Positions 8,088 to 63,596 of a stretch of 64,000 nucleotides of DNA are shown one piece after another. The translations under genes and the position numbers were made by a program. Source of the stretch: an uncultured virus (IMG/VR IMGVR_UViG_3300028903_000203) (taxonomy: Duplodnaviria; Heunggongvirae; Uroviricota; Caudoviricetes); IMG/VR virus record IMGVR_UViG_3300028903_000203, one strand, 5' to 3'. The notes beneath the pieces are model-generated. The model was not told the origin of the DNA. It saw only the letters and a program-made list of their open reading frames with translations, and ran no database searches. Position 1 is the stretch's first letter. Each line of letters opens with the position of its first letter.

Positions 8088-8115
8088 TGCTTTATCAGGA
8101 AATCGCAGTAAAGCA
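8088..8115. repeat. 28-bp quasi-palindromic site, copy 1 (TGCTTTATCAG GAAATC GCAGTAAAGCA)
   Basis: One of five related copies; 5 nt from the stop of 8121..8498. Confidence 0.85.
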
Positions 8116-8120
8116 TTACA

Positions 8121-8498
8121 TCACATCCTCGAGCGCGGCCCCAGCGGTCCCAACATCTCCTGGACCTCGACCGTGCGCAGCATCCGTTGGTAGTCGCCCT
8201 CCCAAACGTAGGCCCAGTGCTGGAGGCAGGGGGCCAGCTCGGGGTGGCCCATGCGCACTTGCTGGCACTCGGGGACGCAGCTTTGGTAGATAAACCTGCG
8301 CCACCCTCTTTCATCGACCAGTTCTGTAGCGATGTAGCCAGCAGCGACCGAGCCTAGATACCATACCTCTTGGACCCGCTGGACGCGCACCCTGCGCTCT
8401 CGGAAAGGACGCTCACGAGCGGGCGACAGCATTGCTCCTACAATGTCGGGTAGCTGCACTTTGACAACTGCGTAGCGCTGCCGCTGCTGCGAGAGCAT
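8121..8498 (-). CDS. Hypothetical protein
   Basis: GGAGG RBS; TAATG overlap with upstream gene. Confidence 0.55.
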   Translation of the reverse strand: MLSQQRQRYAVVKVQLPDIVGAMLSPARERPFRERRVRVQRVQEVWYLGSVAAGYIATELVDERGWRRFIYQSCVPECQQVRMGHPELAPCLQHWAYVWEGDYQRMLRTVEVQEMLGPLGPRSRM

Positions 8499-8941
8499 TA
8501 CCTGACCTCCAACTGCTGCTGTACCAGGGGGCTGTTGGTCCACCGGACGGCAGCATAGAGTTGCAGCTCCTGGGCTACCACCTGCTTCTGCGCGGGCGTC
8601 AGCCGGGTCGCATCATTGTCGCCAAAGCCCGGAGGGCCGTCAATCCAGGCTGCACCATTCACCGCGATGTGGTGCCGGCCGGCCGACACCGCTTCATACT
8701 GTGGAGGCTCCTGCGGTGGAGCGTCCTGGGTCAAGAGTACGGCAACGATAGTGTAAACGGTCTGTTCGCCCCGGCCCCGCCGCTCAAACTCGGTCTGGGT
8801 CATGTAGTGGATCATGCTCGGGTGGTGGCGGCTGTACACCCAGTCGAGGTCACGGGACTGCAACGTAGGATCGTCACCCATAAAGACCAGGGACAACACG
8901 AGATAGCTGTGGCCTTGCCAGGGACTAGGCGCTGTGCTCAT
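8498..8941 (-). CDS. Hypothetical protein
   Basis: GAGGA RBS before MSTAPSPW. Confidence 0.55.
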   Translation of the reverse strand: MSTAPSPWQGHSYLVLSLVFMGDDPTLQSRDLDWVYSRHHPSMIHYMTQTEFERRGRGEQTVYTIVAVLLTQDAPPQEPPQYEAVSAGRHHIAVNGAAWIDGPPGFGDNDATRLTPAQKQVVAQELQLYAAVRWTNSPLVQQQLEVR

Positions 8942-9509
8942 GGGTATCCTCGTCAATGGGAGTGGGTGGCAACAGGCGTACCGCGCCGGTCGGCTCCAGG
9001 TAGCTGTAAGGCCAAAGGTGCAACACGTCACCGTAGCCGGTGCCCTCCTGAGTTTCGCCAGGGTCATAGCGGACCACGCATTCGACCTCCCCCACATGTT
9101 CCGCGCAGTTTGTGAGCCAGTCCGGCGGGTCTGTCTGCAAATCGCGCTCGATGGCCGCCATCTCGTCCACGGTGATCGGGCCAACTACCTCGCAGATGAA
9201 CGCGGCGGCCGGGTCCACCACGAACACCCAACACCGGGTGGAACGCTGGGCCCGGGTGCTGGCGTCCGGGTCAGCCGGGTCGTCCAGTCTCCGGGGGGCG
9301 GCAGGTGCGGCGGTATCCTGGCAGGAGGGGCAGGCCAATGTGGAGCGCACCAACGGTACGCCGTAGAGCGTGCCCGCAGGTTGAGGCGACCCCTGCCGCA
9401 TCCACTGGGGCGGCAGCAGGCAGCGGCTTTGGCCGTCGCGGTGCGCCCGCACGGTCAACCCGCAGGTATCGCAGACGGCCACTAGACCGCCAGCACCAAT
9501 GGTGAACAT
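8925..9509 (-). CDS. Zn-finger hypothetical protein
   Basis: CDTC...CPSC; AGGAGG RBS. Confidence 0.55.
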   Translation of the reverse strand: MFTIGAGGLVAVCDTCGLTVRAHRDGQSRCLLPPQWMRQGSPQPAGTLYGVPLVRSTLACPSCQDTAAPAAPRRLDDPADPDASTRAQRSTRCWVFVVDPAAAFICEVVGPITVDEMAAIERDLQTDPPDWLTNCAEHVGEVECVVRYDPGETQEGTGYGDVLHLWPYSYLEPTGAVRLLPPTPIDEDTHEHSA

Positions 9510-9518
9510 CGCGCCTCC

Positions 9519-9767
9519 TCAGTCCTCTGGCTCTTGGGCCGGCCGGCACTGGTCGCAGCCCACCACATTGTCGTTGGCGTCGATCAGTTCGCTGCTTTCC
9601 ATCCACCACCCGCACCCCGGACAAAGCTCCAAGTTCAAGTCTACGAGCTGGTCCTCGACCTCGGTGGGGTCGGCCGCCAGGCCGAGCTGCTCCAGTACGG
9701 ACTCCACCGAGCGGCATGTGCCTTCGAGTTCGTCGGAAACCTGCTGCAATTCTTCACGGCTCAACAT
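9519..9767 (-). CDS. Small acidic Zn-ribbon protein
   Basis: CPGCGWW...CDQC; GGAG RBS. Confidence 0.6.
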   Translation of the reverse strand: MLSREELQQVSDELEGTCRSVESVLEQLGLAADPTEVEDQLVDLNLELCPGCGWWMESSELIDANDNVVGCDQCRPAQEPED

Positions 9768-9787
9768 GGCGGTGTCTCCAATCTGGC

Positions 9788-10682: not shown

Positions 10683-11209
10683 CTAGGACGCCTGCGGTGA
10701 ATCGTTGATGGCCTCAAAGTCTACGGCCAGCCCCACCAGCGTAATGGACCGCGCCGAGAAAGGAAACAGCACCTCGATGGTGGTGCCTTGGTAGCCCTGG
10801 ACTGTCCCCCACCAACCCCACGATGTCCACTTCGATCTGAAAGGGGCAGCGGCCCCCCCTCGGTGTGGGGGCGGTGGGGTAAGGTCTTGTCCCGCAGGGA
10901 GCGCTTATCCATCAGTATACCGTGCGCGTTGCGGGTGCTACGCCCCAGAAACCGCACCTGCTGCCCCAGATGGAAGGCCACGGCGACGGGATACCACCGC
11001 TCGATCTGCTCCGGCGTGATAACCAACGTCGTGCCCACTTGGGGGCCGACCGGCCGGGTGAGGCGCACCGTGAGCGGCTCTTGCGCGCAGATGGTGCCCT
11101 CGAACAACTCGTCGGTAGCGGTGCGGAACAGTACCACATCGTCAAGCCCAAGATTCGCAGGGTCGATGTTGTAGGATTTCATAGTTCGTAAAACTGCCCT
11201 ATTGCTCAT
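10683..11209 (-). pseudogene. Probably frameshifted hypothetical gene (G7 tract at 10853-10859)
   Basis: Frame-0 tail looks non-coding; the -1 frame gives FRSKWTSWGWWGTVQGYQGTTIEVLF...* ending at 10683, right before the next RBS. Confidence 0.4.
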
Positions 11210-11242
11210 GGTCGGCCACTCCAAACATGCTGCCTACGACCA

Positions 11243-11271
11243 AGTATACCATACTTGGCCGTACTTGTCAA
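11243..11271 (-). promoter_or_regulatory. Sigma70 promoter TTGACA-17-TATACT with overlapping palindrome CCAAGTAT-ACC-ATACTTGG
   Basis: Read directly; heads the leftward gene block. Confidence 0.8.
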
Positions 11272-11304
11272 GTCGTAGTGCTGTATCCGGGTGCCTGCGG
11301 GCAC

Positions 11305-11333
11305 TTGACAACAGCACCCGGCTGTGGTATACT
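11305..11333 (+). promoter_or_regulatory. Sigma70 promoter TTGACA-17-TATACT (TG-extended)
   Basis: Read directly; heads the rightward gene block. Confidence 0.8.
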
Positions 11334-11375
11334 TGATGGTGTACCACGAATGTAGTACAGAACCCGGAGGTACTG

Positions 11376-11792
11376 ATGGGCCTGACAGCACAAACCACAA
11401 CGCAAGTCGAGGTGCGCTACACCTGCGAGCGCTGCGGCTATCGCTCCGGCGCGTATGGGTCGGAGCAGATGCCGCGCTACTACGGTGAGCGGCACGAGGC
11501 CCTGTGCTGCGCCGCCGCCGCGGCTGGCCTGCGCCCTATCCTAGAGTCTTGGGTCGCGGGAGGGGGCACGGATGTTGTGGGCTGGGAGCGGGTAAGCGAT
11601 GGGGCCCAGATGATTGTCTGCGACAGCACCCGTTACGAACCGACGGGGCGAGTGGTCCAGTTCTATGCGGACCTGGCGGCTTTTGCCCGCAGCGAGCCAC
11701 TGGAAACCTATGTGGTCCCGGCGGACTGGAGCCTGTTGACCCATCCCGCGCCGTGGCTTGCCCGCACGCCGGGGGCTTCGGAGGACTGCTGA
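11376..11792 (+). CDS. Hypothetical protein with N-terminal Zn motif
   Basis: GGAGG RBS; CERCG...H...C. Confidence 0.65.
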   Translation: MGLTAQTTTQVEVRYTCERCGYRSGAYGSEQMPRYYGERHEALCCAAAAAGLRPILESWVAGGGTDVVGWERVSDGAQMIVCDSTRYEPTGRVVQFYADLAAFARSEPLETYVVPADWSLLTHPAPWLARTPGASEDC

Positions 11793-16952: not shown

Positions 16953-17060
16953 GGCCCCGGCGCAAGGGACCAGCCGCAATAAGGGCCGTCGGTGGGCAGA
17001 ATAGCGCTCTGCCGGGCATTGTGGCCCGGAAGCCAGAACTACCAACAAAGAGGAACCCTG

Positions 17061-18368
17061 ATGGCCCAGTCCGAAATCATGACCAATCTCAAGAATACGC
17101 TCACTACTAGCAACCGCCTGCTGTTACCGCAGTCCCGCTGGGCCACGTTCGTCCTGGACGCTGCCGACCGGCCCCATATCGCCTGTCAGGACCAGAATCG
17201 GCTGGTGTACGCGCACTTTGCCGACGATGCCTGGCAAGTCGAGGTTGTGGCTGAGTTTCCCAACGCGGCCTACATCTACCCGTTGCTCGAATTGGACCAG
17301 ACCGGCCCGTACATGGCCTACCGTAATCCCCACACCAAGTTGGTCCAGGTTGCGCATCGGCAACCTGGCGGCTGGCGGGTGACCGACGTAGCCGCGTTGC
17401 CTGCCTGGTGCGATCTTGGCCGCGAGCAGTTGTATCTAGTCGAGCAGGCGGAAGCGGCTGCGCCGCTCCTGCTATTCCGCGACTGTGACGATGACCCCTC
17501 CACCCCGCTGCAACTGGCCGCGCCGCACGGCGACGCCTGGTTTGTGCGCTCGGTCCTGCCTTTGACCGGCCTGACCAGTATACTAGGCGCGACAGCAGAT
17601 GCGGCGGGCCACCTGACCATGATACTGCACTGTGGCCGGGAAGGACGCCGGGAACTTTACCCGCAGCGAGACTATGAGCGCAAACGTCCGCACTGGAACT
17701 CTCTCACCCTTGTGCAAGGAAGCCAGCGGGTGCAGGACAACTGGACCTTGCGCCCCCTGGACTTGGGGCTAGAGCGGAGCGACTGGCGACCGTGCTATTC
17801 CTTTCCCCCCTATGCGCCCTACGAAGCGGCCTCTCCCTTGACGGAGTTCGCCTGGCAGCCGCTGACCGCCCGCCTCGACCCCACCGGCATGGTTCACATG
17901 GTCTGGCACGTCCGGGCCCACTATACCGCCCAAGACCTGGTCTATACCTGCGGGCGACCCGGACAGTCCGCCCCCTGGCCGTTGGTCACGGTGGATGCGC
18001 GGGCCGAGATAACCCGGCCGGTGTCGTTGGCCCTGGACCCCGCCGGCCGGCCCCACATGGCCTACTTTGAGCGCATGCGCCACGCGCTCAAGTATGCCTG
18101 GTTCGACGGCGGGGACTGGCGACAGGAAGTGGTGGACACCGCGCAGTTGGGGCCCGACATGGGTATGGCCCGCTGGCCCGAAGGTCGGGTATCGCTCTGC
18201 CTGGACCGGACTAACCGGCCCCACTTGCTCTACTGCACCACCGAAGACCAGCCGGCGCGGAACACTTACCTGGTGCTGGCAACGCCGTTGCCCGGTCCGC
18301 AGGGCTGGTGGATAGAGCCGGTTACGGCAGAGATAACGCCGTCGGCCATGTCTTGGCTAAATCCGTAG
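17061..18368 (+). CDS. Beta-propeller/BNR-like repeat protein (related to 6785..7543)
   Basis: SLALDPAGRPHMAY...LKYA...WRQEVVD type repeats. Confidence 0.6.
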   Translation: MAQSEIMTNLKNTLTTSNRLLLPQSRWATFVLDAADRPHIACQDQNRLVYAHFADDAWQVEVVAEFPNAAYIYPLLELDQTGPYMAYRNPHTKLVQVAHRQPGGWRVTDVAALPAWCDLGREQLYLVEQAEAAAPLLLFRDCDDDPSTPLQLAAPHGDAWFVRSVLPLTGLTSILGATADAAGHLTMILHCGREGRRELYPQRDYERKRPHWNSLTLVQGSQRVQDNWTLRPLDLGLERSDWRPCYSFPPYAPYEAASPLTEFAWQPLTARLDPTGMVHMVWHVRAHYTAQDLVYTCGRPGQSAPWPLVTVDARAEITRPVSLALDPAGRPHMAYFERMRHALKYAWFDGGDWRQEVVDTAQLGPDMGMARWPEGRVSLCLDRTNRPHLLYCTTEDQPARNTYLVLATPLPGPQGWWIEPVTAEITPSAMSWLNP

Positions 18369-18429
18369 CACCCGTAGCCCGAACGGGTTGGCGCTGTTAT
18401 AGGTGTGCGGGCATGAACAACAATGACCA

Positions 18430-18473
18430 GCAACAGCGGCGGCAGACCCGCCACTCTCTGTTGCCGCTGTTGC
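18430..18473 (+). other. 17-bp intergenic stem-loop
   Basis: GCAACAGCGGCGGCAGA-10nt-TCTGTTGCCGCTGTTGC; no U-tail. Confidence 0.5.
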
Positions 18474-18507
18474 GCCGGGCAACCCCAGTGGTTAAGGAGG
18501 ACCTTTG

Positions 18508-18858
18508 ATGCCGCAGTATCTCGTTCTCTACCAGCAAACATTCCACACCAATCCCACCATATTGACCGGGGAGGACCCCCGGCCGTATGACACAGGCAAG
18601 CTCCTCTGGACCGGGGAGCCCGCCCAAGTACCTTGTGCTCTCGTGGAACGCATCATCGCCAAGTTCCGACGGCATTGGGGCAAGGAGTGGAATTGGGTTC
18701 ACCAGCAGCCCCAAGCAGCTTGGAAGGAATTGCGTAGCGGGGCCGCTGTCCCAGTGGCGCAGCATGATATAGTCCCAGGTATCTCCTGGGTCACAGTAAC
18801 TCTCGCCTGGACGAACCAGCCGCTACCACAGGCACGCCCCTGGTGGAAGTTTTGGTAG
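18508..18858 (+). CDS. Hypothetical protein
   Basis: TAAGGAGG RBS; ends RPWWKFW. Confidence 0.6.
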   Translation: MPQYLVLYQQTFHTNPTILTGEDPRPYDTGKLLWTGEPAQVPCALVERIIAKFRRHWGKEWNWVHQQPQAAWKELRSGAAVPVAQHDIVPGISWVTVTLAWTNQPLPQARPWWKFW

Positions 18859-18917
18859 CAGCGCGGGTGGCGCACCGGCAGCACGGTGTCCGACGTACCC
18901 GGTACAGGAGAACACTC

Positions 18918-19646
18918 ATGCGCGTAACGAGCCACCCCCAATACCAACTCCACCTCCAGCGGCTGGCCCGCTATGAGCGGCTCCGCCAAGCGGTGACGCG
19001 CTGGCGGGCCACGGGCACTCCGCTGGTTGTGGACCGAGCGGAGCCGGACGGGCCACTGGTCTGGTCTGGGCCGGATGCCGTGCGCCTGGCCCAAGCCGTG
19101 GGACAAGCGCTCATCGAGCACAATCGCATCATCTGGCAGGACTTTCCCTTCTGCCGCCGGTGCGGCGGACTGTGCTGCGCCGACCGCAGCGCCTATTATG
19201 ATGATGATGTATTCGGCGACGAGATAAGTCTCCTGCTCCTAACCTTGTTGGACTTGCCGGCGGTGACGCTGCCGGACGAGATTCCAGTCGCGCCGGCGGA
19301 CTGCATCTATCGGGCCCCACAAGGTTGTATGTGGTCGCCAGTCGGCCGGCCATGGCCGTGTGCTTTGTTCTACTGCGATGGGGCCGAGGGCGGGGGCCGC
19401 CAGGACACCCCGGAGGCGCAGGAAGAGTATGAGCGGCTGGTGGACACCCTTGAAGCGGCCCTGATTGTCCGGCTGCGGCACACTGCCGTGGGGGAAGTGT
19501 TTTGCCGGCTGGAGCCCGACGCTACGGAAGACGACGCCGGCAGCCTGTTTTGGGACCCGGAAGACGTGGCCGGGGACCTGCAATCGGCCATCGAGCAGGT
19601 GTTCCTGGCCGCGTTCCGGGCCAGGTTTCTCGCCGGAGGCGGATAA
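18918..19646 (+). CDS. YkgJ-like CxxCxxCC Fe/Zn cysteine-cluster protein
   Basis: CRRCGGLCC...CIY...GC...RPWPCALFYC. Confidence 0.65.
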   Translation: MRVTSHPQYQLHLQRLARYERLRQAVTRWRATGTPLVVDRAEPDGPLVWSGPDAVRLAQAVGQALIEHNRIIWQDFPFCRRCGGLCCADRSAYYDDDVFGDEISLLLLTLLDLPAVTLPDEIPVAPADCIYRAPQGCMWSPVGRPWPCALFYCDGAEGGGRQDTPEAQEEYERLVDTLEAALIVRLRHTAVGEVFCRLEPDATEDDAGSLFWDPEDVAGDLQSAIEQVFLAAFRARFLAGGG

Positions 19647-20020
19647 TGTCGCGCAACCAGCGGCAAAGCGACGCCGTGCCCGCGGCCATCCAGCAGGCCC
19701 TGGATCGCGGGTTGGCCCACCAGTTTGCGGCCTACATCCGCCGGCACCAGGAGCGGTATCGGTTCCCCGAGATTGGCGGCGCGGTCACCCTGGCCGGCCT
19801 CTGCCGCCGCTTCCGCGTCTCCCAGGCCGTTGCCCGGCGGGCCATCGCCAGCGTGCCTTTCCTAGCTGTTTCCGAGTATGCCTATCGGCCTACGAGCAGG
19901 CGGGACAGCGTGCCATTGGACTCACCAGAGGCCGGCGAAATACTCGTGGCCTCATTCCTGCCACAGCACTGGCCGGAGGCCCCCTGGGGGCGACGGATCG
20001 TGGTTCTCCTGGAGGAGTAA
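19646..20020 (+). CDS. Hypothetical protein
   Basis: GGAGG RBS, TAATG coupling. Confidence 0.55.
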   Translation: MSRNQRQSDAVPAAIQQALDRGLAHQFAAYIRRHQERYRFPEIGGAVTLAGLCRRFRVSQAVARRAIASVPFLAVSEYAYRPTSRRDSVPLDSPEAGEILVASFLPQHWPEAPWGRRIVVLLEE

Positions 20021-20048
20021 CCCCCTGCCCGGTCGGCTGGTACTGTAA

Positions 20049-20076
20049 TGGTATAGTGCGAAATCGCAGTAAAGCA
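20049..20076. repeat. 28-bp quasi-palindromic site, copy 2 (TGGTATAGTGC GAAATC GCAGTAAAGCA)
   Basis: Core and right arm identical to copy 1; at a convergent +/- junction. Confidence 0.85.
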
Positions 20077-20079
20077 CAG

Positions 20080-20125
20080 ACTAACGGCGGTTAGACTAAG
20101 CATCCCTAGTCTAACCGCTGTTAGT
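20080..20125. repeat. 19-bp inverted repeat containing two CTAAC-N4-GTTAG boxes
   Basis: ACTAACGGCGGTTAGACTA-8nt-TAGTCTAACCGCTGTTAGT. Confidence 0.7.
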
Positions 20126-20336
20126 TGCGCCGGGAGAGTCTGTTAGAGAGCGGCAACTGGCGGTAGCCGGCCCACCAGACCGTGGCCGAGCTCTGCGGTC
20201 TGGTCAAGGAATGGCGGAGCGGGTGCCGCGGGCACAGCCTATGCCGGCCGCTTGAACAGCAGGAGGGGGGTTTTCCAGTAGTAGTCGGGGACAACCCCAA
20301 CCAACTCCCACCCCCTCGGCCCCCAGCTTGTTCAAC

Positions 20337-20675
20337 TTAGGCAACGCCCATCAACAGGGCAAAAATGCCGGGGAATGCGACGACCGCAACGGGAACCACC
20401 ACCGCCCGTGCCCGTCGCCAGAACGACACTTGGGGACAGAGGGCCCCCAAAAACCAGGCCAGGAGATAGGCGGTTACGGAGGTCACTACCGATGCCCCCG
20501 AAATCGCTGCTAGCCACCACCCCCAGGTTGCCGCAGACCACCCGGTTGTTGTCCCGGTGATTTGTTGTGCGACAGTTGCCAGCCCGGCCAGTAGCATCGT
20601 TGCGAGCAGTGTCACACCGACTGCCAGCCAGAAAGCTCTGTGGTCTGAGTTGCGATCCTTGTCTTGGGCTTCCAT
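20337..20675 (-). CDS. Small membrane protein
   Basis: GGAGGAG RBS before MEAQDK; hydrophobic segments. Confidence 0.6.
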   Translation of the reverse strand: MEAQDKDRNSDHRAFWLAVGVTLLATMLLAGLATVAQQITGTTTGWSAATWGWWLAAISGASVVTSVTAYLLAWFLGALCPQVSFWRRARAVVVPVAVVAFPGIFALLMGVA

Positions 20676-20802
20676 TGTGTTCTCCTCCACACAAGCGCAC
20701 CTATTCCAATATCTACGTTGTCTCGCTCTGGAAGGTTTCCCATCCCTGCGCCTGGCCTTGGCAGTTGATGCTAAGCGGGCTACCGCGCAGTGGGTTGACT
20801 GG

Positions 20803-21579
20803 TCATGCAGCCAGAAACGTCCTCCGCCATTCCGCCATGCGGTCAACGTGGTCGGCAGCAGGCAGGTTCTCGACTGGCAGTGCCGTCAAAGCTTGGGTCA
20901 CCCGCTGAATAGCGTGATCGAGCCCAAAGTGCAAAGCGGTGTACAGGGCCATCTGCTCGCCGGGAAAGGATGCTGGCCCGAGCAGGACGCGGGCGGCAAT
21001 TAGCGCCTTCTCTGCGGCGCAGAGGTCGGCCCACACCCGCCCCGCCACGCCGGACCCATCCAGCTCTGCGGCGCAGAGGTTGGCCCGCACCCGCCCGGCT
21101 TCGCCTGACCAGTCTACAACCGCCGCCAGCCGGTTGGTGGCCACACACAAGTGGGGCGTCACCGCCGCCAGGGGAGCAAACACGGTCAGTGCTGGGAGGT
21201 GGAGAGAGGCCAGGTGCCGCAGGCCAGGGTCGAGCACCGCCGTGCCTACAAAGTAGCTAACCCCGGCGAAGGCCGGGTGTTCCACCGCCCGCACGGCCAT
21301 GCTGCGGGCCGCAAAACAGTGCAGCCCCTGGGCGGCACAAGTCACCGCCAACTGACCTGCGACGCCCTCCAGGGTAGGCTTAGCCGGGGAAGCCACCAGG
21401 GTAATGACCGCCAGCCAAAATGGCTGCGGGGAGCGCTCTACGTGTCGCAGGCGTACATGGCGCACCCAGCCATCGGCATCACGCAGTAGAGCACGCAGCA
21501 CCGCCTGCCAACTGGCGGCCATCCAGCCCGTGGTGTATCCAACGACGAAACGAGTCGCTCGTGGTGTGGACCAAGACAT
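20803..21579 (-). CDS. Hypothetical protein with internal 18-aa duplication
   Basis: AAGGAG RBS before MSWSTP; AGRV.A.LCAAE occurs twice. Confidence 0.55.
   Translation of the reverse strand: MSWSTPRATRFVVGYTTGWMAASWQAVLRALLRDADGWVRHVRLRHVERSPQPFWLAVITLVASPAKPTLEGVAGQLAVTCAAQGLHCFAARSMAVRAVEHPAFAGVSYFVGTAVLDPGLRHLASLHLPALTVFAPLAAVTPHLCVATNRLAAVVDWSGEAGRVRANLCAAELDGSGVAGRVWADLCAAEKALIAARVLLGPASFPGEQMALYTALHFGLDHAIQRVTQALTALPVENLPAADHVDRMAEWRRTFLAA
21010..21110. repeat. 54-bp-period tandem duplication inside CDS
   Basis: CTCTGCGGCGCAGAGGT starts at 21010 and 21064. Confidence 0.7.
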
Positions 21580-21592
21580 ATCCGTTTCTCCT

Positions 21593-22246: not shown

Positions 22247-22379
22247 GTTCTCCTGGCGGCGAATCCGCCAGCCTCCTTTGTATGCGGGCTACAGGGTCAC
22301 TGGCCACGCGCCCCCAGCGCTGTCGGTGACGGCTATGGCGACATTGGCGTTTCTGTCGTTATCCATAGTAGGCTCCTTG

Positions 22380-23570: not shown

Positions 23571-23572
23571 GT

Positions 23573-23941: not shown

Positions 23942-24048
23942 CGCTCGCGCACTCCTCGCTGCTTACGGGCAGCAATGTCAAACCGCGGGGCCGGCGCGGC
24001 GGGTCCTCAGTGTTACCCGCCAGATGCACTGTGGTCGGCCCAACGCTA

Positions 24049-26230: not shown

Positions 26231-26239
26231 CTCGTCCTC

Positions 26240-27228: not shown

Positions 27229-27314
27229 CAGGTAAATCCTCCTTGCGGCTACGAGTATCTGGCGGCACCAGATGCGCTGTTGCTGCCAGGTTCTGGCCGA
27301 GGCACAGAACTACG

Positions 27315-28428: not shown

Positions 28429-28446
28429 AGCCTGCTCCTGGGCTCC

Positions 28447-28938: not shown

Positions 28939-28992
28939 GGCCTTGCTCCTTACGCCGTAAATCCCGCGCCATTCGGAACTATTTCCACTACA

Positions 28993-33972: not shown

Positions 33973-34001
33973 AGTATACTACAATGTAGTGAGGCTGTCA
34001 A
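33973..34001 (-). promoter_or_regulatory. Sigma70 promoter TTGACA-17-TATACT with palindrome ACTACAATGTAGT (33978-33990)
   Basis: Read directly. Confidence 0.85.
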
Positions 34002-34008: not shown

Positions 34009-34036
34009 TGCTATGCTGCGATTTCCAACTGAAGCA
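34009..34036. repeat. 28-bp quasi-palindromic site, copy 3 (rc TGCTTCAGTTG GAAATC GCAGCATAGCA)
   Basis: 1 nt from the stop of 34038..34373 and 7 nt from the -35 box. Confidence 0.8.
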
Positions 34037-40577: not shown

Positions 40578-40579
40578 GG

Positions 40580-42621: not shown

Positions 42622-42638
42622 CTTCCTCAACCTCCTCG

Positions 42639-47651: not shown

Positions 47652-47681
47652 GGCATCCCTCACTCTGTCCCTCACCAAGTA

Positions 47682-49875: not shown

Positions 49876-51996
49876 ATGGCGAAGAAGGCAACTACGCGGT
49901 ACGATGAACGCGACATGGATCATCTCCCCTATCCGATCTGTATCCAACGCCGACCAGGGATGTACGTAGGCGGGCGCGGGGCGACTGCGCTCCATCACCT
50001 GGCCTTTGAGTGCATTGACAACGCCGTGGACGAAGGCATGGCCGGGTTCTGTCACAGTATCGAGGTGACGGTCCATAAGGATGGCAGCCTTACAGTCAAT
50101 GACGACGGACGCGGAGTACCGACCGGCGTACACCAAGAGGATGAAAAGAAGCGGTCCTGGCTGGAGCTTTCGTTCTCCGAGCTGCACTCGGGCGGCAAGT
50201 TTCGGGAGGGCAGCTACTCGGCTTCCGGTGGGACGCACGGCGTGGGGGTCAAGGCCGCTAATGCGCTCAGCCGCACGCTCGAGGTCGAGGTGCGGCGCGA
50301 CGGGGTGCGCTACCGGCAGCGCTATGAGGAAGGGCTGCCGGTGACTGCGGTGCTGGTGTACGCGGCGCATGCCGCAGACAATGCGAAACCCATCGGGGAA
50401 GTGGGCAAGCGGGGGCTGGACACGGCCATCCGGGCCGCCCGCGACAAGGGCATTGGCACCGGCACCACGGTGACCTTCCAGCCGAACCCGGCGTACCTGG
50501 AAACGGTGAAGTGGGAGTTTGAGGTGCTGCGCCACCGCCTGCAAGCGGTGGCCTATCTGGTGCCGGGCGTGCGGGTCACGCTGCGCGATGAGCGGGGCAA
50601 GGGCAAGAAACCACTGGAGCGCACTTACTGCTACGATGGGGGCATCGCCGAGTACGTGCGGCACCTCAACCATGGGCGCAAGGTGCTGCACACGGAAGCC
50701 ATCCTCATCCACGGTGTGGTCAACGGGCTGACCGTAGAAGCGGCGTTGCAGTGGCACGACGGGGATTTTGAGGAGATCATGTCCTTCGTGAATACGATAC
50801 CGACGCCGGACGGGGGGACACACCTTTCGGGGCTACGGGCCGCCGTCACCAAAGCGGTGAACCAGTTCGCCGCCGAGGGCCGGGGGCGGACGAAGGAAGG
50901 GGACCAGATCACCGGCACAGACGCGACGATGGGCTTGACGTGTGTGCTCCACGTCAAGCTGAATGAGCCCGAGTACGATAGCCAAACCAAGACTATGCTG
51001 CGGTCGCCGATCCAGGGCCAGGTAATGAGCGTCGTCTACGATGCCCTGCTGGCCTTTTTCCGCAAGAAAGCAGCGCTGGGCCGGACGGTGATCGCCTGCT
51101 GTTTGCGCGCCGCGCGGGCGCGGCAGGAAGCGGCCAAGGCCCGCGAGCTGGTCGTCAAGGGCTCGACCTTGGAGAACGCCTCTAAGACGGGCCTGCCGGA
51201 GAAGCTGGCCGATGTTTCGCGGGGCACGCCCCGCGAGCAGACCACGCTGTACATCGTCGAAGGCAACAGCGCCGGAGGAAGCTGCAAGCAAGGCCGCGAC
51301 CGGCGGTATCACGCGATCCTGCCCTTGCGGGGCAAGGTGCTCAACGTGGAGAAGGACCGCCAACCGGCGAAGGTGCTGGGCAACGCCGAGATTCGGGCCA
51401 TCATCGCCGCGATAGGCGGTGGGGCCGGCCGAGAGTTTACTGTCGAGACCCTGCGCTATGGGCAGGTGGCGATCTTGGCTGACTCGGACGTGGATGGGGC
51501 CCATATCCAGACCTTGCTCTTGACGTTGTTCCTGCGGCAGATGCGCCCGCTCATCGAGGCCGGGAGGCTTTATCTCGCCCGCGCGCCTTTCTACCAACTG
51601 CGGCGGAAGCGGAAGGGGGGAGATGAAACGCGCTATGCCTACACCGACGAGGAGCGGGAAGCGGTCCTGGCTGAATGGGGCCCGGCTGGCGTAACCACTC
51701 AGCGGTACAAGGGCTTGGGTGAACTGAATCCCCGCCAGCTTAGTGAAACGGTGTTTGCGCTGGGCGTAAGCAATCCGGGGATCGGCGCGCACATGGTGCG
51801 AGTTACGCTCGACGATGTGCACGCGGCCAACGAGGTAGTGGCATTATGGATGGGTAGCGGCAACGCGCCGCTGCGCCGCCGCCAGTTACTGCGGCTGTGG
51901 CAAGGGGCTGAGGAGGACAATGGGGAGGAGGGCAATGGCGAGCTAGAGCTGGAAGAAGGTGGGGGCGGAGAAGAAACCGAGGAGGTGGAAGAATGA
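49876..51996 (+). CDS. gyrB: Type IIA topoisomerase subunit B (GyrB/ParE)
   Basis: RRPGMYVG, ECIDNAVDE, DDGRGVP, LHSGGKF, EGNSAGG, PLRGKVLNV, DSDVDG, QRYKGLGE; could be parE-type. Confidence 0.93.
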   Translation: MAKKATTRYDERDMDHLPYPICIQRRPGMYVGGRGATALHHLAFECIDNAVDEGMAGFCHSIEVTVHKDGSLTVNDDGRGVPTGVHQEDEKKRSWLELSFSELHSGGKFREGSYSASGGTHGVGVKAANALSRTLEVEVRRDGVRYRQRYEEGLPVTAVLVYAAHAADNAKPIGEVGKRGLDTAIRAARDKGIGTGTTVTFQPNPAYLETVKWEFEVLRHRLQAVAYLVPGVRVTLRDERGKGKKPLERTYCYDGGIAEYVRHLNHGRKVLHTEAILIHGVVNGLTVEAALQWHDGDFEEIMSFVNTIPTPDGGTHLSGLRAAVTKAVNQFAAEGRGRTKEGDQITGTDATMGLTCVLHVKLNEPEYDSQTKTMLRSPIQGQVMSVVYDALLAFFRKKAALGRTVIACCLRAARARQEAAKARELVVKGSTLENASKTGLPEKLADVSRGTPREQTTLYIVEGNSAGGSCKQGRDRRYHAILPLRGKVLNVEKDRQPAKVLGNAEIRAIIAAIGGGAGREFTVETLRYGQVAILADSDVDGAHIQTLLLTLFLRQMRPLIEAGRLYLARAPFYQLRRKRKGGDETRYAYTDEEREAVLAEWGPAGVTTQRYKGLGELNPRQLSETVFALGVSNPGIGAHMVRVTLDDVHAANEVVALWMGSGNAPLRRRQLLRLWQGAEEDNGEEGNGELELEEGGGGEETEEVEE

Positions 51997-54587
51997 GGCG
52001 CTCACGGAAAAGCGTGCCGGATGTACCGCCGGAGGAGCTTCCGGCCACGGACGTGCTGGTGGCTGATGCACCGCCCTCCTTGGTGGAGACTTCTCAGGTG
52101 GAATATGCCCCCTATTTCCGCGACGCTTACAAATCCTATGCTGTGGAAGTCATCTCGGGCCGAGCTGTGCCGGACGTGCGCGACGGACTCAAGCCCGTCC
52201 AGCGGCGCATCCTGTACGCCATGGGTGACCTGGGGGTAGACCACACCGCCCCGCACAAAAAGAGTGCGCGTATCGTGGGCGACACTATGGGGAAGTACCA
52301 CCCGCATGGTGACACGGCCATCTATGACGCGCTGGTGCGCTTGACCCAGCCCTTTGTGATGCGTCTGCCACTTATCGAAGGGCAGGGCAACTTCGGCGAT
52401 GGAGATGACGAAGCGGGGGCGCAGCGCTATACCGAGGCCCGCCTAACCGCTGCTGCGGAGTCGTTGCTGCAAGACCTCGGGCGCGACACCGTAGACTTTC
52501 GACCGAACTATGACGGTTCGCTGCGCGAGCCCGCGGTACTGCCGGCCATGTTGCCCAATATGCTCGTCAATGGCTCCACCGGCGCGGCCGTGGGCATCCG
52601 GACCAACATGCCCCCGCATAACCTGGGGGAGGTGTGCGCGGCGGTTGTCTTTGTCTGCCAGCACTGGGCACGCCGCGAGAAGATTACCGTTGACCAGCTC
52701 ATGGAACACATCCCTGGTCCCGACTTTCCCACGGGGGGGATCGTCTACCGCTACCGCACTCTGCGGGACGGCACCACCGAAGATGCGCTGCGGCAAGCCT
52801 ATCTGACTGGGCAGGGCGCGGTGGTGGTGCAAGCCCATGTGGACATCGAGGAAATCGGCGGCGGCAAGAGCCAGGTCGTGGTGTCGCAACTGCCCTATGG
52901 CGTCAAGAAAGGGTCGGTGCTGAAATCCCTGGCTGATACCGTGGAAACGGGGCGCAAACAAAAAACAGGGCCAACCGCGGGTCGGCTGGCGGGGGTAGCC
53001 GACGTGCGCGACGAAAGCGACCGCTCCGGGATGCGCATCGTCATCGAGACCGCGCGCGGGGCGGACCCGCGCGCGGTGCTGCAAGAGGCGCTGCGGTACA
53101 GCGACCTACGCAACACTTTCGGCATCGCCAACTGGGCCCTGGTGCCCTACCCGGACTGTCCCGAGGGTCTGATGCCAGTGCTCCATCCCTTGCGCGACCT
53201 GCTTATTTGGTTCATCCAGCATCGGCTGGAGGTCATCCTGCGGCGCAGCCGCTATGAGCTGGCGCGGTGTCGTGCCCGCCTGCACATTGTGGAAGGCTTG
53301 CTCAAAGCCCTCGACATGCTGGACCAGGTAATCGCGGCGATCCGCGGCTCCAAGACGACGGACGAGGCACGCAAGAAGCTCACCGGCCCCAAGTTCGAGT
53401 TTAGTGATGCGCAGACGCAGGCCATCCTGGATATGCAACTGCGCGGTCTGGTGGCCCTGGAACGCAACAAGCTGGTGGCCGAGCGCAAGGAACTACTGAC
53501 CCGCATCAAGTACCTGGAAGGGCTGATCCGGAGCGAGGCCAAGCGGCTGGAGGTGGTCGTCGAGGAGACCACGGCGATGCGCGAGAAGTTCGGCACCCCG
53601 CGCCAGACCATTATCGTCGACCGGGAAGATGTTACGGCGACAGCGATGGTCACCGCCAGCGACTTGGCAACGCCAGAAGCCCCCCAGGTGCTGGTTCTGA
53701 CCGCAGATGGGGGATTCCTCCGAGTGGATGCCGATGTTGCTCTCTCGCAACCATCCCGCAAGAAGAAGCTGAGCCTCCAGGAAATCCCGCCGGCCGACCG
53801 CCATCTGTGCCGGAGAACAGTGTCGGCCACGGCAGAGGTACTCTTGTTGACCAGTCAGGGCCGGGCCTGGCGGGGGCCGGTGGGGGCGACACCCCGTGTC
53901 GGCACCCGCGAGTTGGGGCTGGCGCGTGACGAGGTTCTGGTTGGAGTGGCTGAAACGCGCCCGGATACCTTTCTGGTCTTGGGTACGGCGCACGGGCAGG
54001 TCAAGCGCACAAAGGTGGCGGACCTGCTGAGCATACCAGAGCGCCAAATGGGTGTGGTGATGGGCTTGGCCGAGGGCGACCGGCTACTGTTTGGGGGCGT
54101 GGCGGGGGCAGGCGCTCATATCTTGCTCTGGACCGCCCAGGGGCAGGTGTTGCGGGTGGACGGGGACATTATTCGCCCGCAGCAGACAGCCTCGGCCCGC
54201 GGCATGGCCGGCATCGCCATCCAGGATGGCGACCGGCTGGCCGGCGGGGCGGTGGTGCCGGCAGAAGCGCAGGGCAAGGAGCCGTGGCAAGTGGTTGTGT
54301 TCACGACCAAGGGCTACGCCCACCGGTTCCCAGTGACGGAGGTTCCGGTCAAGGGGCGGGGCACTGGCGGAGTGCGCTGCCTGCGGCCAGCGAGTCGCGG
54401 GGGCGAACTGGCTGGCATAGCCGTGGGACCGGGCGCGGTGGTCGAGGTCTACGTGGACAACGGCCGGCGCTTCTGGCTGCCCGTGAAGGACATTCCCGCT
54501 ACGGCGCGGGACGCCTTGGGGGAGAGGGTGCTGGAAATCAGCCGTGAGATCGTGCAGGTGGTCGTCCTGCCGGAGTTGGCGGCGTAG
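51993..54587 (+). CDS. gyrA: Type IIA topoisomerase subunit A (GyrA/ParC)
   Basis: RAVPDVRDGLKPVQRRILY, KKSARIVG, YHPHGD, QRYTEARL, beta-pinwheel CTD; no canonical GyrA-box, so may be parC-type. Confidence 0.93.
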   Translation: MRRSRKSVPDVPPEELPATDVLVADAPPSLVETSQVEYAPYFRDAYKSYAVEVISGRAVPDVRDGLKPVQRRILYAMGDLGVDHTAPHKKSARIVGDTMGKYHPHGDTAIYDALVRLTQPFVMRLPLIEGQGNFGDGDDEAGAQRYTEARLTAAAESLLQDLGRDTVDFRPNYDGSLREPAVLPAMLPNMLVNGSTGAAVGIRTNMPPHNLGEVCAAVVFVCQHWARREKITVDQLMEHIPGPDFPTGGIVYRYRTLRDGTTEDALRQAYLTGQGAVVVQAHVDIEEIGGGKSQVVVSQLPYGVKKGSVLKSLADTVETGRKQKTGPTAGRLAGVADVRDESDRSGMRIVIETARGADPRAVLQEALRYSDLRNTFGIANWALVPYPDCPEGLMPVLHPLRDLLIWFIQHRLEVILRRSRYELARCRARLHIVEGLLKALDMLDQVIAAIRGSKTTDEARKKLTGPKFEFSDAQTQAILDMQLRGLVALERNKLVAERKELLTRIKYLEGLIRSEAKRLEVVVEETTAMREKFGTPRQTIIVDREDVTATAMVTASDLATPEAPQVLVLTADGGFLRVDADVALSQPSRKKKLSLQEIPPADRHLCRRTVSATAEVLLLTSQGRAWRGPVGATPRVGTRELGLARDEVLVGVAETRPDTFLVLGTAHGQVKRTKVADLLSIPERQMGVVMGLAEGDRLLFGGVAGAGAHILLWTAQGQVLRVDGDIIRPQQTASARGMAGIAIQDGDRLAGGAVVPAEAQGKEPWQVVVFTTKGYAHRFPVTEVPVKGRGTGGVRCLRPASRGGELAGIAVGPGAVVEVYVDNGRRFWLPVKDIPATARDALGERVLEISREIVQVVVLPELAA

Positions 54588-54594: not shown

Positions 54595-54622
54595 TGGTAT
54601 AGTGCGGAAACGCACTGAAGCA
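54595..54622. repeat. 28-bp quasi-palindromic site, copy 4 (TGGTATAGTGC GGAAAC GCACTGAAGCA)
   Basis: Left arm identical to copy 2; 7 nt after the topoisomerase A stop. Confidence 0.8.
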
Positions 54623-54635: not shown

Positions 54636-54661
54636 AGAGGGGGGCCGGCCGGCCCCCCTCT
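54636..54661. other. Perfect 26-bp GC palindrome
   Basis: AGAGGGGGGCCGGCCGGCCCCCCTCT. Confidence 0.75.
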
Positions 54662-54689
54662 GGACACGGCGGCGGGCCTGGATTACAAT
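54661..54689 (+). promoter_or_regulatory. Sigma70-like promoter TGGACA-17-TACAAT
   Basis: Read directly upstream of 54767..55888. Confidence 0.6.
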
Positions 54690-54766: not shown

Positions 54767-55888
54767 GTGGCTCAGAGAAAAAGACCGCCAGCAAGTCAAT
54801 CGCCAGGAGAAGCGCAAAGCGAAGGGGCCTGCGTCTATCGCGCCGTTGGGCAACAATTGGCCCCGGCCACCCGCGTGCCGCCGTCGGCCTCGGCGGTGGG
54901 GCGCAGCCGGACCCTGACCGCAGGGCAGCCCCGCCCGGATGTACTGCGCCGGGTTAGCGAACAAACTGAAACACCGGGCGAGGCGCTGCTACACTTGTGG
55001 ACCAGTGCTACGACCTATACGCCGTCAGGGGACTATGACCCCTATCTACGCTGGTGGACGCATCGGTGCGCCGTGCAGCATCTTAACCGGCTGTTACACC
55101 CCCGGCCGCCGCTGGATGGTGAAGAGATGTCCTTCCGCGAGCTGTCCGGGTATGCGGCGTTATTGTGGCCGGTGGTGCAACAACTGCTGGCGAAGGTGCA
55201 CCCGCTGACGAAGAACCTGCTGGCCCGGCCGGAGGAGCCTTCACACCTGACGTGGGCGCTGGAGGGTGTTTACGTCGATACCTGCATTACCCTGTATCCC
55301 AGCGACCAGGGCCGCTGGCTCGTGGCCTTACGCGCCCCCTTGGAACCGCCGAATTGGGTTACAGTCGAGAAGGTCACGGCTACGGTGCTCGATGATGCAG
55401 CTTGGACCATACAACGATTATACGTGGCCGCGCTGGATGAAGTGGATGTGCCGGCCTACGCTGATCCGGCACAACAACCGTCGTTGTGTCCTCAGTGTCG
55501 CTGGTGGTGCGGCTGGGATGACCGCTGTGGGGCCTGCTATCCGGGGCAGATAGAGGACGCCACCCCGGCCTGGCGCAAGTTGGCAGAGGCGGTTCCGCAA
55601 CTGCCCACTCCGGGGGGCGAGAATGGGGAGAGCGGGATAGAGCCCTATCTGGGCCAGCCGGCCACGCATGCTGCATTGGTGGCACTCAAAGCACGCTGGG
55701 GCCAAGCGCCGCTCCAGGACGCGCTTTGCCTCGCCCGCAACGCGGCAGAAAGCGGCAGCCTGACCATCCCCGATCTCCTCCGGCTGGCCGGGTTCTCTTT
55801 GAGTGAAGCGCAGATGGCGCTGCCCGGGATTCAGGAGGAGCAGCCGTTGGCGCGGGTCCTGCGTCGGGTGTTGGGGCGGAGGGGTTGA
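54767..55888 (+). CDS. Hypothetical protein with Zn finger
   Basis: AGGAG RBS with GTG start; CPQC..C..CGAC. Confidence 0.6.
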   Translation: MAQRKRPPASQSPGEAQSEGACVYRAVGQQLAPATRVPPSASAVGRSRTLTAGQPRPDVLRRVSEQTETPGEALLHLWTSATTYTPSGDYDPYLRWWTHRCAVQHLNRLLHPRPPLDGEEMSFRELSGYAALLWPVVQQLLAKVHPLTKNLLARPEEPSHLTWALEGVYVDTCITLYPSDQGRWLVALRAPLEPPNWVTVEKVTATVLDDAAWTIQRLYVAALDEVDVPAYADPAQQPSLCPQCRWWCGWDDRCGACYPGQIEDATPAWRKLAEAVPQLPTPGGENGESGIEPYLGQPATHAALVALKARWGQAPLQDALCLARNAAESGSLTIPDLLRLAGFSLSEAQMALPGIQEEQPLARVLRRVLGRRG

Positions 55889-61576: not shown

Positions 61577-61588
61577 ACGGAGGCGCTG

Positions 61589-61921
61589 ATGAAAGTACTG
61601 CTTGTGGAGATGCCTGACGGCACGTGGCAGATTCCGGTGGCGGTGATCGCCCGGCACCGCGCGGCCTATTACGCCACGGACTTTGATGGAGATGTAGCCC
61701 GCAGCCTCGCCGAAGATACGGAACCCCTCTTTGCGGCCGACAGCTATGAGGTCGAGGACTGGGCGACCAACAACATGGATTGGGTCGACGTGGCCCCCCA
61801 TGCGCGGCGGGTAGCGACTACGGTGGATCACCAGGCGGCCTGGAGTAACGCGGCAAAGTCAGTGTGTGAGGTGCCCGAGCAACTGGCTGCGCCGGATGCG
61901 CAGGTCGCCGGCCTAGATTGA
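61589..61921 (+). CDS. Phage-type conserved hypothetical protein
   Basis: GGAGG RBS; IPVAVIA.HRAAYYA...DWATNNMDWVDV. Confidence 0.65.
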   Translation: MKVLLVEMPDGTWQIPVAVIARHRAAYYATDFDGDVARSLAEDTEPLFAADSYEVEDWATNNMDWVDVAPHARRVATTVDHQAAWSNAAKSVCEVPEQLAAPDAQVAGLD

Positions 61922-61956
61922 CCCGTCTGCTTTCCGGCAGACAAGGAGCAAGTAGC

Positions 61957-63471
61957 ATGACAGGAGAGCTGTTCGTTCCCGAGCAGTTGTATGAAACGCC
62001 CCCCGACTGGTTTGTGTGGTGGGCGGCCCATCCCCGTCCGTCCACGGTCCTTCGTCAGCGCCGCCACGGTGCGGATGGTGTTATTCTCGGACTTGATCTT
62101 CCCGCTGCGGAAGCGCTGGAGCGAACTCCCGCCACCGAGCTGTTAGCGCAAATGGATGGGCCGGCCGCTGCGCAGTACGAGGCGCTCTGCCGGGCCCTGG
62201 CGACTGAACTGGACACGCCCCCGGCGCGGGCCGTGCGCGAGGCGCTGCGGCAAGGCCAGCCCCTCTACATCTGGGTCGAGGAGCCGGCCCGCTATCCGGC
62301 ATCGGTGTTGGCCCCCTACTTGCAACGGCTGGGCGAGGGGCAGTACCAAGTAGGAACGCTGGAACAAGCGCAGCAATTCACTGCTGCTTCTGACGAGGAG
62401 GCTTTCCGGCACGCCTATGGCCTGGTAATCGACGCCTGCCAGAACTACATTTATCAACGGCTCCTGCCGGCGGTCAGTTTCGAGTTCGCCTACCCCATTC
62501 ATCCGCTCCACCTCGCGGTGCTGGAGCAGCTCCTGGCGGTCAATGGCGAGCTGTGTTCGCGGGAAGGCACGGTCATCCTCCGGCACCGGGGGGGGCTGTA
62601 CTATACCTGGAGAGGCGGGGTGTTCAATCTCCCGTGGGTGCCGCTCTCCGCCCGGCTGACAGTGTGGGCCTACTTGTACGCTGTAGCAGAGCTAAACGAG
62701 ACACCGGACCTGCCCGATCCGGCCACCTGTCTGCAATTGGTCGCGCTACCAGGGTGGCATCAGACCGCCACGGGCTATGCCTGGCAGGAAGGGAAGGTCG
62801 AGAATGGGGAAGTACACTATGCCGGCCGACGTATCCCGGTAGTCTTTGGTGACCGCTGCGGGGTGCGCTTTGGGGATTCGTTGCCGTGGTTCTATCCCTC
62901 TCCTGCACCGGATGGCCGGTGGGAGGAGCAGACCGATCTGCCCCCATTGGCCTACTATCTCACCGGAAGCGCCCCCTATCGGCAGCGGGGCGCGGGGGCT
63001 CATTTCGGCGACAACGAGCGGCCCCCAACCGAGATCGAACTGGCGTGGGCGGCGCGCCGTGTCGTCGCGCTCCACGCCGAGCGCCTGCGAACGCAACAGG
63101 GGCCGGAGGGCGGAGCCGAGGGCTTTCCTACCCCGGTGCGCTATGACGTGTGGCTGCCTCCGGAGCACGCTGCCGAGTTGGTCCGCGCCGCGCGCCGGCT
63201 GGGACAAGGGCGGGCCACTTTCCTGCGGGCGCTGTTGATTGCGCGGCTGGACCGCCAACAGCAGGAGCCTTTGCCGCGTGCGCCTACGGCATTAATCAAA
63301 GTCCCGCTGGAGATTCCGCCGGACGGCGCGGGGGCTCTGCGCGCCGCGCGGAGCGAACACCATTGGCCTTCGGTGTCGGAGCTGGTGCGGGCGCTGGTGG
63401 CGGAGTGGTACGCGAATCTTGGGGCGGTGACCGAGGAGAAACTACAACAGGACGACCCACAGAATGGTTAG
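61957..63471 (+). CDS. Hypothetical protein with C-terminal tandem RHH-like motifs
   Basis: VRYDVWLP..L..AARRLG..RATFLRALL and VPLEIP..L..A...SVSELVRALV. Confidence 0.55.
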   Translation: MTGELFVPEQLYETPPDWFVWWAAHPRPSTVLRQRRHGADGVILGLDLPAAEALERTPATELLAQMDGPAAAQYEALCRALATELDTPPARAVREALRQGQPLYIWVEEPARYPASVLAPYLQRLGEGQYQVGTLEQAQQFTAASDEEAFRHAYGLVIDACQNYIYQRLLPAVSFEFAYPIHPLHLAVLEQLLAVNGELCSREGTVILRHRGGLYYTWRGGVFNLPWVPLSARLTVWAYLYAVAELNETPDLPDPATCLQLVALPGWHQTATGYAWQEGKVENGEVHYAGRRIPVVFGDRCGVRFGDSLPWFYPSPAPDGRWEEQTDLPPLAYYLTGSAPYRQRGAGAHFGDNERPPTEIELAWAARRVVALHAERLRTQQGPEGGAEGFPTPVRYDVWLPPEHAAELVRAARRLGQGRATFLRALLIARLDRQQQEPLPRAPTALIKVPLEIPPDGAGALRAARSEHHWPSVSELVRALVAEWYANLGAVTEEKLQQDDPQNG

Positions 63472-63537
63472 CGGGGGGCAGTCTCCGCCACACCGGGTCG
63501 CCCTGTTGTGCACAGGAAGAGGGTTCTTCCACTAGCC

Positions 63538-63566
63538 ATTATAGTGGATAGGGCCGGAAGTGTCAA
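63538..63566 (-). promoter_or_regulatory. Perfect consensus sigma70 promoter TTGACA-17-TATAAT pointing into a convergent gene
   Basis: Read directly. Confidence 0.75.
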
Positions 63567-63568
63567 GA

Positions 63569-63596
63569 TGGTTTAGTTGGATTTCGCAGTAAAGCA
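63569..63596. repeat. 28-bp quasi-palindromic site, copy 5 (TGGTTTAGTTG GATTTC GCAGTAAAGCA)
   Basis: Right arm identical to copies 1 and 2, core inverted; 2 nt from the -35 box. Confidence 0.85.

Follow-up and report, generated by a model that had tools for sequence, protein, structure and literature searches.

The stretch of DNA analysed here (the window), 64,000 nucleotides (nt) of an uncultured virus recorded as IMG/VR IMGVR_UViG_3300028903_000203, is 65% G+C and densely coding, with most of its frames lacking a family match. Between its genes lie five copies of a 28-nt nearly palindromic sequence, called s1 to s5 below (Table 1; s3 is read on the reverse strand), which an earlier note on this DNA had picked out and each of which we found exactly where it had been placed. 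An unguided repeat search returned the same five as the largest family in the window (D1), in which an A is common to the copies just beyond the left end, mostly with a purine before it. A degenerate pattern built from the five sites, allowed up to three mismatches, occurs in these five places only (8 strand hits, against 0.01 expected), and none of 100 shuffles gave 8 hits. A position weight matrix, a check that the earlier note had proposed, likewise finds only the five at 40 bits or more when run over the window, scoring them at 40.4 to 48.3 bits against 16.6 bits for the runner-up at 2726. This sixth candidate was rejected as chance, falling as it does in coding sequence within a well-formed open reading frame (ORF; 2499-2780, minus strand). 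The sites are spaced 9-21 kb apart, at a density of about 1 per 13 kb, and share the 28-mer alone, their flanks being unrelated to one another. The family of five is confirmed and statistically solid, and the 28-mer represents a motif family that is new but of known kind, on an orphan giant element.

Any two sites agree at 16 to 24 of their 28 positions, the best pair in the window reaching 24/28. The right arm is the same in s1, s2 and s5, the left arm is the same in s2 and s4, and the centre of s5 is flipped, all as previously described. In four sites the centre is GAAATC or the complement of this, in the fifth it is GGAAAC, and the two nucleotides at its very middle (positions 14-15) are AA or TT in all five. 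G12 and C17 are invariant throughout, whereas 9 of the 22 arm positions show variation; taken as a whole, the arms and the central hexamer are conserved to about the same degree. The earlier note took the shared arms and flipped core as signs of reassortment. However, all ten half-sites match one degenerate 12-nt consensus, TGSTWYASTGCG, flanking a 4-nt A/T-rich centre, and ten draws from a single symmetric consensus of this kind give the same look, which accounts for both the apparent reassortment of arms and the flip of the core. Although the sites can be written in a 28-bp 11-6-11 form, so can any 28-bp palindrome, and a 12-4-12 form is to be preferred because G12 and C17, which border the 4-nt centre, are invariant. 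Nor can the sites be oriented unambiguously: the pairwise identities add up to 210 under the best assignment of strands, 200 with all five on the plus strand and 190-204 for others, so that a fixed orientation with every site on the plus strand was set aside as unsupported.

The sites occupy a narrow position relative to genes. In every one of them, 0 of 28 positions are covered by coding sequence, under a gene call that was deliberately crude and, by missing some genes, overstates intergenic space. Since 12.9% of all 28-mer placements in the window are wholly intergenic under this call, the chance of five out of five is 0.129^5, or 3.6e-5. Four of the sites lie 1-28 nt from a stop codon and four are followed by a sigma70-like promoter directed outwards (s1, s3, s4 and s5), which bears out what had been claimed for them. 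Two sites had been assigned to strand switches, of which only s2 is clearly confirmed, at a convergent junction; at s5 both flanking genes are on the plus strand and only the promoter is on the minus strand. We measured promoter proximity as an outward promoter-like site of at least 9/12 consensus starting no more than 40 bp away. This holds for just 4.0% of the 8,244 placements in intergenic space, compared to four of the five sites (binomial P for at least 4/5, 1.2e-5). As this baseline is itself drawn from intergenic space, the sites show an association with the stretch directly ahead of promoters that goes beyond exclusion from genes.

Table 1. The five 28-mer sites with their neighbouring hairpins and promoters
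Feature	Coordinates	Strand	Surroundings
Site s1	8088..8115		5 nt past stop of gene 8121-8543(-); -35 at 8063, 24 bp off
s1 hairpin	8066..8083	-	Short, GC, 6-bp stem; 4 nt from s1, before promoter; whole-region z -1.01
s1 promoter, sigma70-like 9/12	8036..8063	-	Ahead of gene 7536-8012(-)
Site s2	20049..20076		Convergent gene junction; 28 nt past stop of gene 19646-20020(+)
s2 hairpin, 19-bp stem	20080..20125		3 nt from s2; z -6.41 (+ strand), -6.78 (- strand)
Site s3	34009..34036		1 nt past stop of gene 34038-34373(-); -35 7 bp away
s3 promoter, sigma70-like 11/12	33973..34001	-	Separate 13-bp palindrome in spacer (family D2)
Site s4	54595..54622		7 nt past stop of GyrA-like gene 51993-54587(+); -35 38 bp away
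s4 hairpin, 11-bp, GC	54636..54661	+	13 nt from s4, abuts promoter; z -4.04
s4 promoter, sigma70-like 10/12	54661..54689	+	Ahead of gene 54767-55888(+)
Site s5	63569..63596		97 nt past stop of 61918-63471(+); 75 nt before start of gene 63672-(+)
s5 promoter, perfect 12/12 consensus	63538..63566	-	-35 2 bp from s5; faces 3' end of 61918-63471(+)

RNA contigs of one run (X6) fall beside two of the sites. One, covering 20107-20677, spans the membrane-protein gene 20337-20678(-), which converges on s2, as far as the s2 hairpin that also terminates it; the other, 33595-33948, lies just downstream of the s3 promoter. Among the RNA contigs listed, none extends over s2, s3 or the gene that precedes s3, a gap to which no weight is given. 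That promoter, at 34001, has two palindromes, the 28-mer standing 7 bp before its -35 and an unrelated one of 13 bp lying in the spacer up to its -10. The latter belongs to a second operator-like family (D2), separate from the 28-mer, which fills the -35/-10 spacer of three strong minus-strand promoters (28983-29021, 33963-34001 and 41523-41561), two of them with a conserved hairpin in the leader that follows (33930-33961 and 41495-41527). Downstream of the minus-strand s5 promoter there is no convincing minus-strand ORF, and this promoter may drive an antisense or small RNA.

Is the 28-mer read as a duplex or as a folded strand? The two arms do not covary: 70.0% of cells pair, against 71.0 +/- 2.2 with shuffled partners, 444 of 500 shuffles being equal or better, and a double change is seen in one pair. 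Single-strand DNA folds are weak (-2.4 to -7.3 kcal/mol) and differ by copy, with outer pairs formed in s1, inner pairs in s2 and s4, and s3 left unfolded (z -0.24). With five sequences, both the fold and the covariation tests are weak ones; nevertheless, they point one way. The lack of compensation between arms and of a common hairpin suggests that a symmetric binder would recognise the duplex sequence of the 28-mer.

Assembled metagenomes provide a view of the sites beyond the window. Contigs of four public runs were aligned to 17001-37000, a segment that covers s2 and s3; such contigs do not show rare forms. One contig of run X1 (41.7 kb, depth 72.5) spans both sites unbroken. Two partial X1 matches begin at the edges of s2 and s3, and before both of them the loose ends close with a stop triplet, at 0-2 nt from the site. 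The one of the two that is listed in full, a record of 48,325 nt (depth 68.3), matches 34008-34038 only, in mid-record and with 2 differences; as it differs on both flanks, it is a further copy of the site and not a recombination junction. In all, at least two further copies stand on other X1 contigs of similar depth, at least 90% like s2 or s3, a likeness that no pair in the window attains (none above 24/28). No joint at s2 or s3 is among those listed. Three are listed elsewhere, two of them from run X4 with sides (22 and 24 letters) against which the tool itself cautions and one from X1, which leads from 18059 back to 18024 (side 31) and falls inside a 35-nt repeat. This GC-rich repeat, at 18024-18058, matches five other X1 contigs (depths 12-25), and its counterpart in inverted form stands at 7309-7342, a distance of 10.7 kb. 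In run X3, two bins, 20336-21002 and 35010-35676, rise to depths of 21.7 and 18.8 from about 2-4 nearby (5-10x), so that some other and more plentiful DNA in X3 shares these stretches at 90% likeness or above.

The reading that we favour, at a probability of about one half, is that the 28-mers are double-stranded DNA operators for one symmetric protein encoded by the element, with a silencer or insulator role resembling that of KorB. As its alternative, the earlier note had offered sites (possibly 12-4-12) to which a dimeric protein of regulation or partition binds, and it is this reading that the evidence favours. We propose a model where a symmetric protein, dimeric or tetrameric, would bind the 28-mer through its two 12-nt half-sites around the 4-nt centre. 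The sites lie where intergenic regions begin, directly behind the stop codon that closes one unit and ahead of the promoter of the next. Once bound, the protein would most likely silence or insulate the downstream promoter, or check read-through, without dependence on helical phase: at proximal sites it may occlude the region next to the -35, and at the others a phase-independent action, such as spreading, sliding or a roadblock to read-through, may apply.

Support for operators comes from the existence of an intergenic family far above chance, from the outward promoters close to four of the five sites, from the single consensus of the ten half-sites and their uncompensated variation, and from the further copies behind stop triplets on other X1 contigs; the invariant G12 and C17 are what would be expected of one continuous 12-4-12 contact surface. 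It is the promoters that lead us to infer repression over activation. The two nearest a site are near-consensus, at 12/12 (s5) and 11/12 (s3), and promoters of this quality generally need no activator. Further, the distances from the centre of the site to the -35 are 16, 21, 38 and 52 bp, which are not in helical phase and argue against a face-dependent activator or a fixed loop.

A comparable arrangement is found in the IncP plasmid RK2, where, in the part of the published account that describes them, the KorB operators (OB) lie either 4-10 bp or 45 to more than 1,000 bp upstream of promoters (PMC11790492). Like OB, the 28-mer is one palindrome repeated around a large mobile replicon, a few bp or tens to hundreds of bp from a -35, and it too would act on strong promoters without helical phasing. 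The same part of that account places OB directly upstream of the -35 of PkorA with the operator of KorA (OA) over its -10 (PMC11790492), and the two palindromes of the promoter at 34001 resemble this pair, a likeness of layout only. In contrast, the 28-mer spans 28 bp against 16 bp and has no likeness to the OB and OA oligonucleotides given there (PMC11790492). No ParB-family gene was seen in the 64 kb of the window, and a CTP-clamp behaviour, as well as binding and repression themselves, would be hypothetical here. The resemblance is thus one of a repeated palindrome proximal or distal to promoters, without a likeness of sequence to OB.

Stoperators of Cluster A mycobacteriophages offer a second comparison. 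The passages available describe many repressor sites over a phage-sized genome, mostly outside promoters (PMC6550527; PMC9283540), and the 28-mers likewise lie between genes, where a bound protein could putatively stop elongation. As described in one of these passages, stoperators are asymmetric, 13 bp long, bound by a monomer, numbered at 20-30 per genome and directed one way with respect to transcription (PMC6550527). The 28-mers, in contrast, are symmetric, far apart and without an orientation rule, and in these respects do not match stoperators.

As to the binder, there are two candidates, each of which is a lead only. The first is the 124-residue product of 19646-20020(+), the gene whose stop codon precedes s2 by 28 nt. 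It may have a winged-helix fold: its hits in a protein atlas are all winged helix-turn-helix proteins, all of them below the tool's bar (best feature 0.81, TM 0.41-0.48), and it has no Pfam match even at E<=5. The second is a 517-residue protein encoded just before s5 (61918-63471, plus strand) with two weak C-terminal RHH_1 stretches (E 7.6e-4, below the curated cut-off).

Several observations weigh against an operator network. Six further strong promoters in the window (11271, 11305, 29021, 41561, 48287 and 58949) have no site, and the 28-mer is thus not a general promoter part; conversely, no promoter was found near s2. At s1 and s4 a hairpin intervenes before the promoter is reached, an oddity in a simple operator and no less suited to an element that closes a transcription unit. 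The proposed network also leaves without explanation the perfect promoter at s5, aimed into the 3' end of a gene, and the near-identical twins of s2 and s3 elsewhere in X1. Pfam and NCBIfam scans of the 64 kb found no ParB or KorB family and no regulator convincingly linked to the sites. Finally, the argument for repression over activation uses predicted start sites, and the family amounts to five copies, with no relatives in the searched collections.

What kind of element carries these sites? Its recognisable genes encode an NAD-dependent ligase, GyrB- and GyrA-like subunits, a DEDD exonuclease, a large HNH protein, a hybrid histidine kinase, a GGDEF protein and a few helix-turn-helix proteins. 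No protein in the collection searched exceeds 57% identity to the GyrA-like protein, whose named best hits are metagenome genomes of Chloroflexi/Anaerolineae. An 870-residue protein (28999-31611) has no relative among 5.8 billion proteins, and the sole record of its own sequence sits on a contig of 449,756 nt, so that the element is at least 450 kb long. Matching DNA occurs in activated-sludge and digester metagenomes. The element is very large and probably extrachromosomal, and the 64-kb window contains no hallmark that separates a huge phage from a megaplasmid or another kind of element, nor does it contain a tRNA or an Rfam family.

Relatives are equally scarce, and the window itself is absent from the collections of phages, plasmids, IMG/VR viruses, JGI metagenomes and species-representative genomes that were searched. 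A megablast of 28000-48000 against plasmids and phages gave no match, and proteins of 493, 982 and 624 residues have no relatives among IMG/VR viral contigs. The GyrA-like protein matches 32 viral-contig loci at 26-42% identity, none of which has the motif; in tblastn against phages, its matches are all below 60% identity, to unannotated records, and the 870-residue protein has none. The 28-mer pattern itself has no match in viral contigs. Two short, low-GC contigs of JGI metagenomes do match it inside a reading frame, which we take as chance, and in the literature the half-site strings turn up only as primers in unrelated papers. Two further features of the window may be recorded. The large HNH protein, an 866-residue product of 42639-45239(-) with a TPR-like N-terminal part, adjoins the hybrid histidine kinase and a GAF-GGDEF gene, and what its HNH domain resembles most in NCBIfam, at a score well short of the cut-off, is the HNH region of IscB/Cas9d. 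A 54-nt tandem repeat in two copies, 81% alike, lies at 21010-21117.

The alternative closest to operators is that the 28-mers are centromere-like or chromosome-organisation sites, of ParB/parS type or like those of N15, that serve segregation or compaction without a primary role in transcription. The prophage-plasmid N15 has dispersed inverted-repeat centromeres, and palindromes scattered at 9-21 kb on a very large element would suit such a function, as would the lack of a promoter at s2. Chromosomal parS sites are also dispersed around the origin, as stated in part of one account (PMC5016525). However, strictly intergenic placement and the link to promoter-upstream regions (P 1.2e-5) would be unexpected for pure centromeres. 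Neither a ParB nor a ParA family was found in the 64-kb window, and 28 bp exceeds the 16-bp inverted repeats of the published example, as far as that source describes them. We therefore consider a purely segregational function unlikely, noting that KorB combines both roles and that this alternative thus overlaps with the operators we favour.

The main inference of the earlier note was that a tyrosine recombinase uses the sites to shuffle promoter-bearing modules, and it gained no support. In a more general form, the 28-mers would be crossover sites for a recombinase whose gene lies beyond the window or in the host, of tyrosine (11-6-11) or serine (12-4-12) type, inverting or excising self-contained modules from promoter to terminator. 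The geometry is suitable, the central dinucleotide is AA or TT at every site, and, with the sites oriented as originally chosen, conservation is higher in one arm than in its partner. The segments between sites appear to be self-contained transcription units, in which inversion could be tolerated, and the unexplained twins of s2 and s3 would also fit. Against this, no integrase, resolvase or transposase family was matched among 198 frames of at least 130 amino acids (Pfam, run on 64 ORFs and then 142 further stop-to-stop frames), 70 ORFs (PHROGs) or 66 ORFs (NCBIfam), a search for recombinase genes that covers 64 kb out of the 450 kb or more of the element. Conservation in the centre equals that in the arms, and the sites cannot be oriented. 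The deep X1 contig runs continuously through s2 and s3, and the one partial match listed in full, differing on both flanks, is another copy. A match in a host chromosome had been suggested as a sign of a dif site. Among one genome each of 185,579 species, the pattern, which covered three of the five site variants, is absent bar one orthologous coding place in three Nostocales, taken as chance.

Comparison with known shuffling systems leads in the same direction. The 28-mers resemble the pdif sites and dif modules of Acinetobacter plasmids in being 28 bp long, writable as 11-6-11, several per replicon and placed between gene modules. In the portion of the pdif account consulted, arms are conserved (for example ATTTCGTATAA and TTATGTTAAAT), 6-bp spacers vary between sites and must match for recombination, orientation switches from one site to the next, the modules are of small size, and reads reveal rearranged forms as a minority (PMC13141974). 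Unlike these, the 28-mers have arms that share nothing, by eye, with the XerC and XerD arms of the seven pdif sites in Table 1 of that account (PMC13141974), a centre that is not freely variable where pdif spacers differ widely, and no defined orientation. Neither alternating orientation, small modules nor minority rearranged forms were found for them in the window and the contigs. The sites also recall a feature of another kind. T4-type phages carry, at module borders, cassettes in which a repeated stem-loop accompanies a strong early-type promoter, as here, and homology along the full cassette is their presumed route of recombination; in the window, by contrast, the 28-mer alone is shared. 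It is tempting to imagine a giant shufflon or dif-module system in the orphan element of a Chloroflexi-like host, driven by a serine (12-4-12, central AA) or divergent tyrosine recombinase encoded elsewhere on its 450 kb or more, in which case the twins on other contigs would be partner sites. We regard crossover sites in general as very improbable and unsupported by the evidence, and a giant shufflon of this kind as slightly more improbable still.

Operators must also be weighed against elements that work as single strands, such as REP-like sequences or parts of terminators at the 3' ends of transcription units, acting on termination or on mRNA stability. The short distances from stop codon to site at four of five copies would be natural for such elements, as would the stop triplets before both extra copies on other contigs and the hairpins 3-13 nt beyond the site at s1, s2 and s4; at s2, a minus-strand transcript would even have the long hairpin followed by the U-rich arm of the site. 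REP and BIME palindromes of enterobacteria are extragenic too, following stop codons at operon ends. They are, however, stable hairpins maintained by compensatory change, whereas the 28-mers have neither a common fold nor covariation and cannot be counted as REP on this basis. Sites s3 and s5 have no neighbouring hairpin or significant structure (z 0.18 and -0.13), and the window contains no Rfam match and no transposase family of IS200/IS605 type. A function as 3'-end elements therefore appears very unlikely.

It is similarly very doubtful that the arms are extended -10 elements (TGnTATAGT-like), by which each site would be a compact promoter working in both directions. With TGGTATAGT as their left arm, s2 and s4 come near the TGGTATACT of the strong promoters 11271 and 11305, and the s4 arm scored as promoter-like (9/12 with TG), but the A at -11, an essential promoter base, has an equivalent in only 3 of 10 half-sites and is missing from the best-conserved arm. 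From s2, moreover, both directions would run antisense into converging genes, and s1 and s4 each have, further downstream, a hairpin and a complete promoter distinct from the site; the sites do not combine an A at -11 and a T at -7 with a direction towards a gene, as sigma70 extended -10 elements do. The two strong promoters just named form a mirrored divergent pair of 11/12 promoters at 11236-11340; each has an extended -10, and the pair is flanked by genes 10721-11224(-) and 11376-11792(+). A resemblance of the arms to the activator box of T4 middle promoters was dropped, as there is no -10 element at the required distance. The place of s4 behind the GyrA-like gene had also suggested a strong gyrase site, a reading that was set aside.

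Were the recombination reading true, the 28-mers would represent a new modular gene-shuffling system, which the evidence does not favour. As operators, they hold a different interest. The 28-mer marks the borders of transcription units and so provides a handle on regulation in a very large element of activated sludge. It could serve to fish out the cognate regulator and to define the regulon of the element. Beyond this one element, the 28-mer allows us to ask whether long-range silencing of the kind exerted by KorB exists outside proteobacterial plasmids.

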